Positions 1 to 3,407 of a DNA stretch of 28,806 nucleotides are shown one piece after another. The notes beneath the pieces are model-generated. The model saw nothing but the letters and a program-made list of their open reading frames with translations. It ran no database searches and was not told the origin of the DNA. The DNA comes from a virus. Taxonomy: Duplodnaviria; Heunggongvirae; Uroviricota; Caudoviricetes. The position numbers were made by a program, and so were the translations under genes. The DNA lies in the IMG/VR virus record IMGVR_UViG_2529292922_000011; one strand, given 5' to 3'. Position 1 is the stretch's first letter, and each line of letters begins with the position of its first letter.

Positions 1-10
1 AGTTATCAGA

Positions 11-40
11 GCCATCAGTACTTAACTGGTGGCTTTTTTT
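11..40 (+). terminator. Rho-independent terminator upstream of the lysis genes (tR'-like late terminator)
   Basis: Inverted repeat gccatcag / ctggtggc (one G-U pair) with 7-nt loop followed by a T7 run; sits directly upstream of the holin, where lambdoid phages place tR'. Confidence 0.4.
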
Positions 41-75
41 ATTGTTGTCAGCTTCCGGATAACGGGAGACGGGGT

Positions 76-291
76 ATGGACCAGATGGAAAAAATCACAA
101 CAGGTGTGTCATACACCACGTCAGCGGTGGGAACGGGCTACTGGTTCCTGCAGTTGCTGGACAGGGTTTCCCCGTCTCAGTGGGCGGCAATAGGCGTGCT
201 GGGGAGTCTGCTGTTTGGGCTGCTGACATATCTGACTAACCTGTATTTCAAAATCAGAGAGGACCGTCGTAAGGCGGCACGGGGAGAGTAA
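76..291 (+). CDS. Class II holin / pinholin, phage 21 S-like, with dual-start motif
   Basis: 71-aa product [11 protein letters not shown]...[24 protein letters not shown]...[13 protein letters not shown] closely matches phage 21 S (recalled from memory); two TM segments; Met codons at positions 1 and 4 as in the S21 antiholin/holin pair; GGAGA RBS upstream. Confidence 0.85.
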
Positions 292-295
292 TTCA

Positions 296-646
296 ATGAC
301 TCAAAACTATGAACTGATTGTGAAAGGGATCCGCAATTTTGAGAATAAAGTTACGGTAACTTTAGCGTTACGGGACAAAAAACGCTTTGACGGTGAAATT
401 TTTGACCTGGACATCTCGCTGGACCGTGTTGAAGGTGCCGCGCTGGAGTTTTATGAGGCAGCAGCCAGAAGGAGCATCAGACAGGTCTTCCTGGATGTTG
501 CTGCCGGGTTATGTGAAGGGGATGAGCAGTCGCCGGAAAAGCGCCCCGTAATTTTAGAGGCGCAGAATGTATGGATAACCTACAAAGGAAAGCTACCGGG
601 AAGAATTACTGGTTCTCTGAAGACTCCTCCGGAATCACAACCTTAA
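296..646 (+). CDS. Hypothetical soluble acidic protein inserted between holin and endolysin
   Basis: 116-aa ORF on the same strand filling the gap between holin and endolysin; no TM segment; no family recognised by eye. Confidence 0.5.
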   Translation: MTQNYELIVKGIRNFENKVTVTLALRDKKRFDGEIFDLDISLDRVEGAALEFYEAAARRSIRQVFLDVAAGLCEGDEQSPEKRPVILEAQNVWITYKGKLPGRITGSLKTPPESQP

Positions 647-709
647 GTCACTGACCGGAACAGATAAACCTGTCCGTGGGCAGAAACCGATAAATCCTGA
701 TAAATATCC

Positions 710-1243
710 ATGAACGCAAAAATCAGATACGGCCTGTCGGCTGCCGTTCTGGCGCTGATTGCCGCTGGTGCGCCTGCGCCTGACATTCTCGACCAGTTTC
801 TGGATGAAAAGGAAGGTAACCACACCACGGCATACCGTGATGGCGCGGGTATCTGGACCATCTGCCGCGGTGCCATCCTGGTGGATGGCAAACCTGTCGT
901 TCCGGGCATGAAGTTGTCGAAGGAAAAATGCGACCGGGTTAACGCCATTGAGCGTGATAAGGCGCTGGCATGGGTGGAGAAAAACATCAAAGTGCCATTG
1001 ACCGAACCCCAGAAAGCGGGGATCGCGTCATTCTGTCCGTACAACATTGGTCCCGGTAAGTGTTTCCCGTCGACGTTTTACAGACGAATTAATGCAGGTG
1101 ATCGCAGGGGAGCATGCGAAGCGATTCGCTGGTGGATTAAGGACGGTGGCAGAGACTGCCGTATTCGCTCAAATAACTGTTACGGTCAGGTATTCCGTCG
1201 TGACCAGGAGAGCGCGCTGGCGTGCTGGGGAATCGACAGATAA
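710..1243 (+). CDS. SAR endolysin (phage lysozyme with N-terminal signal-anchor-release domain)
   Basis: N-terminal Gly/Ala-rich weak TM stretch GLSAAVLALIAAGAPA followed by an E...D...T catalytic arrangement (EKEGNHTTAYRDGAGIWT); pairing with a pinholin is the expected partner arrangement. Confidence 0.85.
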   Translation: MNAKIRYGLSAAVLALIAAGAPAPDILDQFLDEKEGNHTTAYRDGAGIWTICRGAILVDGKPVVPGMKLSKEKCDRVNAIERDKALAWVEKNIKVPLTEPQKAGIASFCPYNIGPGKCFPSTFYRRINAGDRRGACEAIRWWIKDGGRDCRIRSNNCYGQVFRRDQESALACWGIDR

Positions 1244-1337
1244 GCAGAATATTTTGCTGAAAAATGAGGTTGGCCAACGCGGGCGGATAACACGAAGTCC
1301 TGTGAACTGGCAAAACCTAAGTGAATAAAAGTAAAAA

Positions 1338-1372
1338 CCCCGTTTGTTGGCAGCAAGCGGGGTTTTGTTTTT
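1338..1372 (+). terminator. Rho-independent terminator after the endolysin
   Basis: 9-bp stem ccccguuug / caagcgggg (one G-U) with 7-nt loop, followed by ttttgttttt. Confidence 0.55.
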
Positions 1373-1535
1373 ATGGCAGTAAGCTATGGGAGGCTGCCTT
1401 GATTGATTTTAGCAAACTGATTAGGGAGTTGCGACTCATGATTAGTCAATTACCAAACTGGAAATTTTTGCTGGTCTGGAGCATCCCTTTTTTATGGGTA
1501 GTATCCCAGTTAATTGTGGCAATTAAGGGGTAGCT

Positions 1536-1667
1536 ATGTCAGACAAACTCATAACGCCGGCAAAGGTCCTGTGTGTGATTGTCGGTATTTCATTTTCACT
1601 AATGCTGGTTGCTCTTTTTCTGTCCCTCGCCTGGGTGATGTTGTCTTCGTCGGGGCTGCTGGGGTGA
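1536..1667 (+). CDS. Small hydrophobic single-TM peptide (43 aa), hypothetical
   Basis: ATG with AAGGGG RBS 5 nt upstream; product MSDKLITPAKVLCVIVGISFSLMLVALFLSLAWVMLSSSGLLG; its stop overlaps the next start (GTGA). Below the 60-aa cutoff of the supplied ORF track. Confidence 0.3.
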   Translation: MSDKLITPAKVLCVIVGISFSLMLVALFLSLAWVMLSSSGLLG

Positions 1668-1786
1668 CAGTGACTGATGACATCAGCAGAGCGCTGGCTT
1701 TTGCTATTAAGTGGGTGGCTGTTGGTATTGCTGTGTCTCCGATGCTGTATGGGCTGGCAAAACTGGTCATTGCGCTGAAATCGTGA
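1664..1786 (+). CDS. Small hydrophobic peptide (40 aa), hypothetical, GTG start
   Basis: Hydrophobic product ...ISRALAFAIKWVAVGIAVSPMLYGLAKLVIALKS; resembles the next peptide; start is coupled to the preceding stop. Confidence 0.3.
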   Translation: MTVTDDISRALAFAIKWVAVGIAVSPMLYGLAKLVIALKS

Positions 1787-1797
1787 ACTTTAAAAAG

Positions 1798-1884
1798 ATG
1801 AGTGCTGAACTTATTCGGGCAATGGCATTTGCCATTCGTATTGTGGCCATTGCTGTTCTGGTCTGGGCAATCCGTTGGTGGTGA
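1798..1884 (+). CDS. Small hydrophobic peptide (28 aa), hypothetical
   Basis: [28 protein letters not shown]; stop TGA lies 1 nt before the Rz ATG; resembles the previous peptide (RALAFAIKWVAVGIAV vs [16 protein letters not shown]). Confidence 0.3.
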
Positions 1885-1885
1885 T

Positions 1886-2380
1886 ATGAACCGTGTTCTG
1901 TGTGTGGTGATTATTGTCATGCTGGTAGCCTGTGGTGTGCTTAGTCTGGGGCTGAATCATTACCGCGATAACGCCATCACCTACAAAGCGCAGCGCGATA
2001 AAAAAGTCAGTGAGCTGAAACTGGCGAATGCCACTATTACTGACATGCAGCAGCGCCAGCGAGATGTCGCTGCGCTTGATGCCAGATACACGAAGGAATT
2101 AGCCGATGCGAGAGCTGAAAATGAAACTCTGCGCGCTGATGTTGCCGCTGGTCGTAAGCGCCTGCGGGTCAACGCCACCTGCCCCGGTACCGTGCGTGAA
2201 GCCACCGGCACCTCCAGCGTGGATAATGCAACCGGCCCCCGACTGGCAGACACCGCTGAACGGGATTATTTCATCCTCAGAGAACGGTTGATGACAATGC
2301 AGAAGCAGCTGGAAGGGGCGCAGGAATATATCCGCACTCAGTGCACTAAGCTGGCTTTTTATTATCCGGAGGATACATGA
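1886..2380 (+). CDS. Rz: Rz i-spanin (inner-membrane spanin subunit)
   Basis: [55 protein letters not shown]... is highly similar to lambda Rz (recalled); N-terminal TM segment plus coiled-coil periplasmic domain. Start is at an internal Met of the longer track ORF 1802..2380. Confidence 0.85.
2106..2291 (+). CDS. Rz1: Rz1 o-spanin (outer-membrane lipoprotein), embedded in Rz in the +1 frame
   Basis: [23 protein letters not shown]...[32 protein letters not shown] matches lambda Rz1, including the lipobox (VVSAC) and proline-rich region; fully nested in Rz. Confidence 0.8.
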
Positions 2381-2601
2381 AGAAATTACGGGTAACCGTA
2401 GAACCTTGTCAGGGAACAATTCCGTTCCGTATTTTGCAGCGTGGTCGTGTTCTTGTTGAAGGTTCGTTCAGTGGTAAATGTACGCAATTACACTCCCGGA
2501 CCTTTCAGGTGAATGCCACGAATGAAGAGCTAACCGTGGAGTGTACGATGAATGCCGCTAAATGCCGCATGGTATCCGCTGCATTACAGCCAGTGTGTTG
2601 A
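2377..2601 (+). CDS. Hypothetical 74-aa protein, translationally coupled to Rz
   Basis: ATG overlaps the Rz stop (ATGA) and is preceded by GGAGGA; product carries 5 Cys; no family recognised. Confidence 0.4.
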
Positions 2602-2799
2602 GCGACCTTATTATCCATGCGCGGTATTGTCGCCGTATTCCTGCATTAACAGAGACCGCAGCCCGACAGGGAGACTCCTCTGCGCGAGTGTGCGGGGATA
2701 ATCAAAAACGATACACACCGGGGTTTACCGCGTTAACGGAGCGCGGCGTTGTCCCCTCATAGTCGCCTGTCCGGTGCGATGGTGGAAGAAACCGAACGT

Positions 2800-3000
2800 T
2801 CATTTCTCGTTATTTGTCATGCTGGCCGGGCGCAGATGCGTTGCATCTGTTGCCAGCCTTCTCCTGCAGGCTTCAATAACCCACGCTGAAAAGTTACCGG
2901 ACCCTTTATGCTCAAGGGCGATGTTGATCTGTTCAATTATGTGATTGGGGAAACGGATATTGCGGGTTGTGGTTCTGCGGGTCCGGTTTTTCGATGACAT
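2800..3000 (-). CDS. YlcI-like small prophage protein (DUF3950-like)
   Basis: MSSKNRTRRTTTRNIRFPNHIIEQINIALEHKGSGNFSAWVIEACRRRL... resembles the E. coli DLP12 YlcI family found between lysis and terminase genes. I chose the internal Met at 3000 because of the AAAGGAAAT RBS; the track ORF runs to 3060. Confidence 0.55.
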   Translation of the reverse strand: MSSKNRTRRTTTRNIRFPNHIIEQINIALEHKGSGNFSAWVIEACRRRLATDATHLRPASMTNNEK

Positions 3001-3041
3001 ATTTATTTCCTTTACTGATTGCCATATGACGGGGATTTTAC

Positions 3042-3407
3042 ATGGCTGAGCTTCGTACACTCCAGAGCAGAATCAAAACACTGAATACCCGACGGGTGAA
3101 TATTCTGAAGGGGGAGCAGCGTCGTGTCAGTGGCAGTGCACGTGTTTCCCTCAAGCGTCATATCTGGCTGAGGGACGCCGGGCAGTGCTGTATCTGTGGT
3201 CGTGTGGTTGACCTCTGTGACAGTGAACTCGATCACCGAATTGCACTTCAGTTCGGTGGTGGTAATGAGGAGACGAATCTTTGGACGCTCTGTGCCGAAT
3301 GCCATCGACAAAAGTCTGCTCGTGAAGCGGCGAGTGGTATGCCGGACCCGACGCTGCCGGAGGTGTCCGGAGGTAGTGGCAGAGAGGACGACATCATCGG
3401 ACTGTAA
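3042..3407 (+). CDS. HNH endonuclease (terminase-associated)
   Basis: Cys-rich HNH core CCICGR...DLCDSELDHRIALQFGGGNEETNLWTLCAECHRQK; lies immediately upstream of the terminase genes, as HNH proteins do in cos-type HK97-like phages. Confidence 0.85.
   Translation: MAELRTLQSRIKTLNTRRVNILKGEQRRVSGSARVSLKRHIWLRDAGQCCICGRVVDLCDSELDHRIALQFGGGNEETNLWTLCAECHRQKSAREAASGMPDPTLPEVSGGSGREDDIIGL

Follow-up and report, generated by a model that had tools for sequence, protein, structure and literature searches.

Between the endolysin gene R and the inner-membrane spanin (i-spanin) gene Rz of an Escherichia coli prophage, we find a conserved terminator hairpin followed by four very short genes, each encoding a peptide with one transmembrane (TM)-like segment, the last of which ends one base before the Rz start codon. 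The prophage sequence is a 28,806-nucleotide (nt) Caudoviricetes record (IMGVR_UViG_2529292922_000011; hereafter the window), and its first 2.6 kb are a lambdoid lysis cassette from an E. coli prophage of the phage-21/Shiga toxin (Stx) type. We favor, with moderate confidence, a reading of positions 1334–1885 as accessory cargo in the late (lysis) operon, in which a conserved terminator hairpin and four mobile minigenes for single-pass inner-membrane peptides are coupled to Rz and in which the peptides are likely lysis modulators. As a statement about function, the best supported by comparison of related loci is that coupling into Rz appears to be preserved whatever cargo has been inserted.

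Results and discussion

A first-pass annotation of this DNA had described three short hydrophobic open reading frames (ORFs) of 43, 40, and 28 amino acids (aa) in this position. All three are present (ORF1, ORF2, and ORF3), and a further one that it had missed, ORF0, precedes them, bringing the count to four (Table 1). Each of the four peptides has one TM-like segment, with a mean hydrophobicity of 1.9–2.9 in a 19-residue window. TM-like ORFs of at least 28 aa on the + strand of 1373–1890 (518 nt) number five, compared with 0.18 ± 0.41 in composition-matched shuffles, and five were reached in 0 of 2000 shuffles; the + strand is strongly T-rich in this region (AT skew −0.26 to −0.31). RefSeq annotates ORF1, ORF3, and a longer form of ORF2 (1631–1786) as hypothetical proteins and leaves ORF0 without annotation. 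The window peptides are members of, or identical to, WP_001280935.1, WP_042004856.1, and WP_032140280.1 (each a "hypothetical protein") or PHROG families. A 123-aa ORF on the minus strand (1549–1920) and an ORF in the +1 frame (1677–1778) were judged spurious, the selection signal being in the annotated frames of the + strand; between loci L001 and L005, the alternative frame is less conserved, at 85% aa identity versus 97% for the annotated frame.

The junctions between these ORFs are tight, and the junction sequences bear out the earlier description of coupled stop and start codons (GTGA; TGA, one nt, then ATG) leading into Rz. ORF0 has a Shine-Dalgarno (SD) sequence, AGGGAG, located 8 nt upstream of its start (duplex −8.4 kcal/mol), and its stop codon is separated from the ATG of ORF1 by 2 nt. 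Its last codons, AAG GGG, form the SD sequence of ORF1 (duplex −8.4 kcal/mol), and a strong SD sequence is kept before ORF1 in four different upstream contexts. ORF1 ends in GGG TGA, and a GTG within GGGGTGA opens ORF2 with an SD duplex of −5 to −6 kcal/mol; we infer that ORF2 starts either at GTG 1664, within the GTGA that it shares with the ORF1 stop, or at GTG 1670. The ORF3 stop codon is separated by a single base from the ATG of Rz at 1886 (TGAtATG).

The same closeness recurs in all arrangements that we examined: the stop of the ORF that immediately precedes Rz lies between −4 and +10 nt from the Rz start. The TGAtATG junction of o3 with Rz (we write o0 to o3 for the corresponding modules in other loci) has its like in the TGAnATG junctions found before Rz or a Dam methylase gene elsewhere, and o1 overlaps a second type of Rz (type B), which reads (M)VSINR[MI]LSAF..., through GTGA. 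Gaps of 7, 8, and 10 nt separate Rz from o1 in locus L264, from Dam, and from o2 in Salmonella, respectively. Lambda, as had been stated, carries no insert, and its R and Rz genes overlap by 4 nt (ATGA); rrrQ and rzpQ of the K-12 prophage Qin overlap as well.

The start of the type-B Rz, which occurs in many related phages (L004 2208–2250, L005 2482–2550, and L100 ≈3025–3045), seems to be a GTG that overlaps the ORF1 stop, GGGGTGAGCATAAACCG. The ATGGTGAGC version that follows Dam confirms this start, and the internal ATG used by annotators is ATT in some variants. If the gene starts at this GTG, at least one public record (PhiR5_2) therefore begins Rz ≈60 nt too far downstream.

To compare reading frames, ≈260 related loci were fetched, and ratios of non-synonymous to synonymous variation (pN/pS) were computed for the annotated frame and the two shifted frames; these are rough figures, being pairwise sums over non-independent sequences. 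Conservation of the frames in related prophages had been named beforehand as a point on which the idea of genuine minigenes should fail or stand. The frames are conserved, and pN/pS is lower in the annotated frames of o2, o3, and o1. The ratio is 0.125 for o2 (1.3 and 1.6 in the shifted frames), 0.16 for the canonical 48 codons of o2 with Salmonella included (0.98 and 4.2), and 0.34 for o3 (0.70 and 1.06). For o1 it is 0.69 among close variants (0.82 and 1.10) and 0.40 between the window and an E. marmotae copy at 65% nt identity (1.10 and 2.06), and for o0 it is 0.62 (1.08 and 0.96). Variable sites in canonical o2 fall 14/7/34 on the three codon positions, substitutions in ORF1 are mildly conservative (p ≈ 0.02), and ORF0 has no excess of conservative substitutions. 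The ORFs are intact in 97–100% of loci, ORF0 in 101 of 102. Judged by these comparisons, the o2/o3 family is certainly coding and under clear purifying selection, ORF1 is probably coding under moderate constraint, and coding by ORF0, for which the evidence is the weakest of the four, is doubtful.

A 44-nt stretch at the canonical o2 start (AAGTATAAACGAATTCTGTTGAGGTTGACTATGAAAAACGGCCTT; L005 2164–2193 and L168 3008–3037) is near-invariant in DNA across E. coli, E. marmotae, and Salmonella, the synonymous diversity of the rest of o2 being ≈0.25.

All four peptides match PHROG families of "unknown function." None of them has a match in Pfam, NCBIfam, or PADLOC, so that no holin or antiholin family was hit in Pfam or NCBIfam, and Rfam gave no match in 1–3200 at E ≤ 1. 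ORF0 matches phrog_6632 (E = 6e-5), and ORF1 matches phrog_4906 over the full peptide (E = 4.5e-21). The 103 database relatives of ORF1 come almost entirely from E. coli, one being a metaclust entry without an organism name. They keep the 43-aa length down to ≈65% identity, with a near-unchanged core in which GISFS-M-V is strictly invariant. ORF2 and ORF3 both match phrog_4493, phrog_3246, and phrog_1115 along the full peptide (ORF2 best to phrog_1115, E = 6.4e-25; ORF3 to phrog_4493, E = 3.8e-6). The resemblance between these two peptides that had been noticed by eye stands up to shuffling (z = 5.25; 0 of 2000), and the two share PHROGs and align in one family.

Taken together, these matches indicate that ORF2 and ORF3 are paralogs within one family of 38–62 aa that has an MKNGLExDAP head and one TM segment. 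Its canonical o2 form is a 48-aa protein, MKNGLELKAPVTDDISRALAFAIKWVAVGIAVSPMLYGLAKLVIALKS, and the family occurs in E. coli, E. marmotae, and Salmonella. An o2/o3 profile search of 1.84 billion representative proteins returned only 24 clusters, all of 20–87 aa; the full-length o2-family clusters among them have the MKNGLExDAP head, one TM segment, and a tail that reads ...ALKS or ...RWW. No relative was found when the GTDB species representatives were scanned with the o2/o3 alignment, and the family is missing from those reference genomes. ORF2 of the window begins VTVTDD... at the point where the native 3' flank of ORF1 (GGGGTGACAG) meets codon 11 of o2. ORF3 has an alternative head, MSAELIRA (in its general form MS[AT][ED][LF]IRA), and related heads and tails of the ORF3 type occur in P0224, P0226, and P0241. 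A single hydrophobic TM segment is kept in all variants. The peptides were thus already present in RefSeq and PHROGs as proteins of unknown function; the families are not linked into one array there.

One further idea about o2, a dual start of the holin/antiholin kind giving 60-aa and 48-aa forms, was dropped, as the 12-codon extension has no coding signature.

The slot between R and Rz is highly variable in related phages. Measured from the endolysin stop to the Rz start, the slot comes in length classes of 338, 490, 607, 645, ≈1000, ≈1200, ≈1416, and ≈1900 nt (338–1902 nt in relatives), and more than 15 R-...-Rz architectures occur among 253 loci. R-o2-o1-Rz is the commonest in the IMG/VR sample, and the window has R-o0-o1-o2-o3-Rz. 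Others include R-Ant(KilAC)-o0-o1-Rz, R-Ant(P22_AR_N)-o1-Rz, R-Ant-o1-o3-Dam-Rz, and R-Ant(KilAC)-o0-o1-o2-o3-Rz, where Ant is an antirepressor gene, as well as R-o2-Rz in Salmonella and R-o3-Rz, R-o2-o3-Rz, and R-o2-o1-o2-o3-Rz. The larger cargo was assigned with Pfam to P22_AR_N and KilAC antirepressors and a D12 adenine methylase.

Between gap classes, the blocks of DNA homology stop at ORF limits; PhiR5_2, for instance, matches window positions 1536–1667 and 1670–1787 as separate pieces in the opposite order (o2 then o1). Homology blocks that end at gene limits are the classic sign of lambdoid mosaicism acting on functional units. The alignments show the minigenes to be discrete modules; recombination joins them at ORF limits, and they occur in many orders and combinations. 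In the Ant(KilAC) classes, the ATG of ORF0 overlaps the Ant stop, and in the Ant-o1-o3-Dam class, the VTVTDD start of o2 is joined in frame to o3. The o2 module stands directly upstream of Rz behind three unrelated holin/endolysin pairs (S21-type holin with lysozyme, holin_3_1 with GH19, and holin_2_3 with lysozyme), and in E. marmotae it follows a fourth (holin_8/holin_3_7 with GH108), where no Rz was called downstream. The first-pass suggestion of a run of duplicated TM-segment minigenes is therefore right in part: the TM minigenes are chained and ORF2 and ORF3 are duplicates, but ORF1 and o2 are independent families, and the array of the window is one of many arrangements.

The left boundary of the array is a hairpin. 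That a strong intrinsic terminator follows the endolysin had been noted before, and both a terminator scan and RNA folding agree. The scan gives a stem of 15 pairs at 1334–1366, 6 of them GC pairs, with a 3-nt loop and the tail GTTTTTATGG, and folding of 1325–1380 yields −23.8 kcal/mol (z = −4.8), with no sequence as stable in 200 shuffles. With an A-run on its 5' side and a T-run on its 3' side, the hairpin at 1334–1372 is shaped like a bidirectional terminator. The gap classes of 338, 490, 607, and 645 nt, which are without Ant, have it; in the E. coli classes that carry Ant, it does not occur within ≈170 nt of the endolysin stop. Salmonella loci have it immediately 5' of o2, even where an Ant gene comes first, and they share the outer stem, AAAACCCCG...CGGGGTTTT. 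The inner stems differ in a lineage-specific manner; those of Salmonella and E. marmotae still pair. Across 13 variants, the outer 9 pairs are invariant, and pair 11–25 covaries (UG in 6, AU in 4, GC in 2, and UA in 1). None of its 39 sites varies in the window-type block, and since a hypervariable 93-nt stretch lies beside it, the hairpin marks the left edge of a recently spread module. It travels with the minigene module in both E. coli and Salmonella.

How would genes behind such a terminator be expressed? A consensus scan, which is a weak test, found no convincing sigma-70-like promoter on the + strand between 1373 and 1535, and Rz, Rz1, terminase, and head genes lie downstream of the hairpin on the same strand. 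The Q-modified RNA polymerase of lambdoid phages reads through terminators. Late transcription would be expected to continue past the hairpin, because Rz, Rz1, and the genes for packaging and the head lie beyond it in the same orientation. Since the array has no convincing promoter of its own, sits behind a terminator, and has late genes downstream on the same strand, only Q-modified, terminator-resistant RNA polymerase would transcribe it, and would do so along with the genes for holin, endolysin, and spanin. Ribosomes would load at the strong SD sites of ORF0 and ORF1 and pass by termination-reinitiation to ORF2 (at GTGA), to ORF3, and to Rz (at TGAtATG), a relay that would restore the translational coupling that lambda obtains from the ATGA overlap of R and Rz. 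At the time of lysis, the peptides would join the pinholin, the membrane-tethered endolysin, and the i-spanin in the inner membrane. Our guess is that they may serve there as non-essential modulators of lysis, acting on its timing or on the behavior of the pinholin, endolysin, or i-spanin, because of their location, because they are predicted to be coexpressed and coupled with three lysis proteins that act at the membrane, and because the o2 TM segment weakly resembles TM segment 2 of the pinholin.

Accessory membrane proteins of lysis cassettes are known from several phages, among them P2 LysA, P1 LydB, the T4 antiholin RI, Mu gp25 ("releasin"), and other Mu lysis regulators. Like LysA, LydB, RI, and gp25, the minigene products are small membrane proteins encoded in or beside a holin-endolysin-spanin cluster, would be coexpressed late, stand outside the minimal machinery, and are absent from related phages. 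Unlike them, they form a shuffled, partly paralogous array, are much smaller (28–43 aa), and have no sequence or profile similarity to those proteins. The phage 21 pinholin S21, whose TM segment 2 forms the hole, offers a second parallel in that a window peptide has a single TM segment and a basic C-terminal end. The o2 TM segment has a weak local similarity to residues 34–49 of the S21-type holin (KWVAVGIAVSPMLYGL; z = 4.2, p ≈ 0.004), which is not significant after multiple testing. Unlike S21, the peptides have no Pfam holin match, o2 also accompanies holins that are not pinholins, and the window copy is without the family head.

The minigenes also resemble lambdoid morons such as lambda bor and lom or the Ant and Dam cargo of Stx phages, in that they are extra genes between conserved late genes, are absent from close relatives, and have mosaic boundaries at gene ends; antirepressor and methylase cargo is found in the same R-Rz slot. 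Classical morons are expressed in the lysogen, each from a promoter of its own and with a terminator downstream. The minigenes differ from these, as no promoter was found for them, the only strong terminator is upstream, and the ORFs are chained into an essential downstream gene, Rz. A combinatorial array in the endolysin-Rz slot, with a conserved hairpin boundary and an always-preserved coupling into Rz, appears to be undescribed.

Several observations weigh against reading the segment as functional lysis cargo. Both ORF2 and ORF3 of the window are without the conserved MKNGLExDAP head, being truncated at the N terminus relative to the family, and they may therefore be weakened or TM-only derivatives. 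ORF3, which starts 11 nt after the ORF2 stop, has no SD sequence (duplex +0.3 kcal/mol). Constraint on ORF0 and ORF1 is weak overall (pN/pS of 0.62 and 0.69), and the shifted frames of ORF1 are little worse among close variants. In the window-type block, 9 of 434 ORF sites vary (5 synonymous and 4 non-synonymous); this class is almost clonal, and the intactness of ORFs within it therefore carries little weight. The predicted read-through of the hairpin draws on general knowledge of lambdoid Q antitermination, the Q gene itself lying outside the window. Well-studied cassettes (lambda and Qin) work without these peptides, and we found no publication on them in the literature, nor any ribosome-profiling or proteomic account of their translation. 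The modules are also found away from Rz, as SASA-o2-DUF1353, after tail-fiber genes, and, for o1, before a 220-aa gene in another phage; they therefore seem to be mobile in their own right and not parts of Rz, and such contexts fit generic cargo as well as they fit a lysis factor.

A rival account, which we consider unlikely, is that the cargo is partly decayed. On this account, ORF1 and the o2 family are real elsewhere, and ORF2, ORF3, and perhaps ORF0 of the window are non-functional leftovers of recombination, kept because the block is young and because its junctions translate Rz. The headless ORF2 and ORF3, the missing SD sequence of ORF3, the absence of a protein-level signal in ORF0, and the near-clonality of the 645-nt-type block all agree with it, as do an ORF1/ORF2 junction that looks like a fusion at GTGAC microhomology and the frameshifted or fused versions in L003, P0197, and P0207. 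What speaks against it is that the in-frame starts lie exactly at the coupling positions, that the head MS[AT][ED][LF]IRA recurs with both tail types in other phages (P0224 and P0241), that ORF3-type copies at ≈85% identity differ mostly synonymously (pN/pS 0.34), and that the VTVTDD-o3 fusion in the Ant-o1-o3-Dam class is in frame.

A bolder version of the lysis-modulator idea strikes us as rather improbable. The o1 and o2/o3 peptides would be lysis regulators of a class not recognized before, binding the TM segment of the i-spanin, the pinholin, or the membrane-tethered endolysin. They would thereby determine when lysis happens and also, where the phage carries Stx, when the toxin is released; each phage would be tuned by its own combination of modules, and the hairpin, possibly with a short antisense RNA, would lock the module in the prophage state.

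A lock of that kind also figures in an account to which we give still less credence, in which the peptides act on the lysogen side, as morons or in the manner of type I toxins. The peptides would be membrane toxins or exclusion factors, a short antisense RNA that begins within the 5' end of the minigenes and is ended by the bidirectional hairpin would check their translation, and the terminator and antisense RNA together would silence the array, and with it the coupled Rz, in the prophage. Type I toxins (Hok/Gef, Ldr, Ibs, TisB, and ShoB) are hydrophobic, shorter than 60 aa, and have one TM segment, as the minigene products do; they are often tandem paralogs and often lie in prophages. The modules also sit at other classic moron sites, for example after tail-fiber genes. 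The hairpin has its A-run upstream and its T-run downstream, and promoter-like sites on the minus strand face it: in the window a speculative motif running from 1542 to 1513 (Table 1) and, in the E. coli 490-nt class and Salmonella, TAGTCA-18-TATACT, which sits in the 44-nt stretch that is near-invariant in DNA and has no coding signature. These promoter matches reach only 9 of 12 positions, about the chance rate, and the window motif is not conserved in Ant(KilAC)-class loci. A pairing of an antisense promoter-like motif with a terminator of bidirectional shape is conceivable at this locus. The conservation of the 44-nt stretch would be explained by the canonical o2 start, whose GAGG SD sequence and ATG also lie within it. 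Unlike type I toxin genes, the ORFs form part of a late operon and are coupled to it; a promoter for the supposed toxin was not found on the + strand, and the Rfam, Pfam, NCBIfam, and PADLOC searches gave no match.

We think it very unlikely that the minigenes are recombination linkers or pure coupling spacers, conserved as nucleotide-level homology patches for the exchange of Ant and Dam or as upstream ORFs whose peptide sequence is irrelevant. The same short blocks do flank different cargo genes, the ORF1 core is near-invariant in protein variants and sampled loci, and ORF0, the end of which doubles as the ORF1 SD sequence, is without protein-level constraint. Against this stand the third-position bias of variation in o2 (pN/pS ≈ 0.15), the value of 0.40 for ORF1 against E. 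marmotae, where the shifted frames exceed 1, and the persistence of the hydrophobic TM segment throughout.

Finally, the first-pass proposal that the ORFs are degenerate duplications of the 5' end (TM segment) of the spanin gene, in favor of which stands a local similarity of KVLCVIVGISFSLMLVA in the comparison of ORF1 with Rz, is rejected: the resemblance of ORF1 to the Rz TM segment is not significant (z = 2.7, p ≈ 0.015 among 21 comparisons), nothing is seen at the DNA level (z = 1.4), ORF1 also precedes type-B Rz genes whose N terminus (VSINRMLSAF...) is without the motif, and ORF1 and o2 are independent families with their own PHROGs that occur where no Rz follows.

The array is widespread and occurs in medically relevant phages, including those of the pandemic sequence type 131 (ST131) lineage; no database or paper that we found assigns the peptides a function, and RefSeq misses one ORF and places the start of ORF2 oddly. 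If the peptides do modulate lysis, they would be expected to affect burst timing and Shiga toxin release, and the best-understood lysis pathway would gain a new layer. Should they be cargo alone, the locus would be a clean natural example of exon-like shuffling of genes of 30–50 codons with the coupling to Rz kept, and a test case for the annotation of small proteins.

Genomic context

Table 1. Features of the lysis cassette and of the endolysin-Rz gap in the window
Feature	Position	Strand	Remarks
Phage-21-type class II holin (pinholin family), 71 aa	76–291	+	Pfam PF04971 Phage_holin_2_1, E = 9e-33
YdfR/DUF1327 gene	296–646		PF07041
Endolysin R, lysozyme-type, 177 aa	710–1243	+	Hydrophobic N terminus; Pfam PF00959, E = 9e-24; RefSeq "lysozyme"
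Endolysin-Rz gap, 642 nt	1244–1885
Non-coding stretch, R stop to hairpin	1244–1333	+	Hypervariable; apparent recombination boundary
Intrinsic-terminator hairpin with T-run	1334–1372	+	Apparent left edge of the conserved minigene/Rz module
ORF0, 31 aa	1438–1533	+	ATG start; single-TM peptide MISQLPNWKFLLVWSIPFLWVVSQLIVAIKG
Speculative sigma-70-like motif	1513–1542	−	CTGACA-18-CACAAT, with TG; points through ORF0 to the hairpin; 9/12 matches, 2.7 such sites expected by chance in the scanned region
ORF1, 43 aa	1536–1667	+	ATG start; single-TM peptide, family phrog_4906
ORF2, 40 aa	1664–1786	+	GTG start; "headless" o2-family copy
ORF3, 28 aa	1798–1884	+	ATG start; short RWW-tailed o2-family paralog
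Rz (i-spanin), 164 aa	1886–2380	+	Pfam PF03245, E = 4e-51; phrog_13
Rz1 (o-spanin lipoprotein), embedded in Rz	2106–2291	+	Pfam PF06085, E = 1.7e-21

The gap sequence is 100% identical in prophages of many ST131-type E. coli (O25b:H4, JJ1887) and in three induced-phage records. Part of the segment occurs in 2068 of 5426 complete E. coli genomes (≈38%), and at least 80% of it occurs in 587 of these (≈11%); Stx1 phages, Stx2 phages, and prophages of Salmonella carry related modules.

Loci of the 645-nt type that are otherwise near-identical differ at 23 of the 93 sites that separate the endolysin stop from the hairpin, the 550 nt that come next being nearly the same in all of them, and only the first ≈86 nt of this stretch are common to the Ant-carrying classes. 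This pattern marks 1244–1333 as a hot spot of mutation or recombination. The idea of a conserved RNA in this stretch was dropped, as no other part of the locus is as variable.

Additional observations

The o2 minigene recurs outside lysis cassettes (L258–L261 in Salmonella and L172–L173). Near prophage ends, it lies between a SASA/DUF6645 protein gene and a DUF1353 protein gene, with two tandem o2-like ORFs in L261, and a divergent 66-aa form is found downstream of tail-fiber/DUF4376 genes. Both settings are further cargo slots that this minigene occupies.

A second terminator-like hairpin (12 pairs with a T-run) lies at 8–36 on the + strand, ≈40 nt 5' of the holin gene and just 3' of the end that a SASA sialate-esterase gene has in matching genomes. 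According to a 2026 preprint, the prophage small RNAs PasA and PasC occupy an esterase-small RNA-holin-lysozyme position. Because that position matches exactly, the hairpin may be the 3' end of a PasA/PasC-like small RNA, of which only the last ≈36 nt would fall in the window.

Downstream of Rz, a 74-aa ORF on the + strand (2377–2601), which RefSeq calls as a 71-aa hypothetical protein, begins with an ATG that shares bases with the Rz stop codon (ATGA). Its match to the 291-position profile of phrog_2571 (E = 7e-28) is limited to positions 100–172, so that it seems to be a piece of a larger gene.

The ydfR-like gene and the endolysin gene are 63 nt apart in the window (647–709) and 343 nt apart in the matching O25b:H4 prophage (L266 641–983), where the interval carries a minus-strand hypothetical (DUF1823-like) ORF; the window would therefore derive from a variant with a difference of ≈274 nt at this point. 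In the same O25b:H4 copy (L266, 13974–17224 and 23473–26658), the tape-measure gene is frameshifted and a lom-like gene is split by an IS21-family element, so that this copy of the prophage is probably defective.

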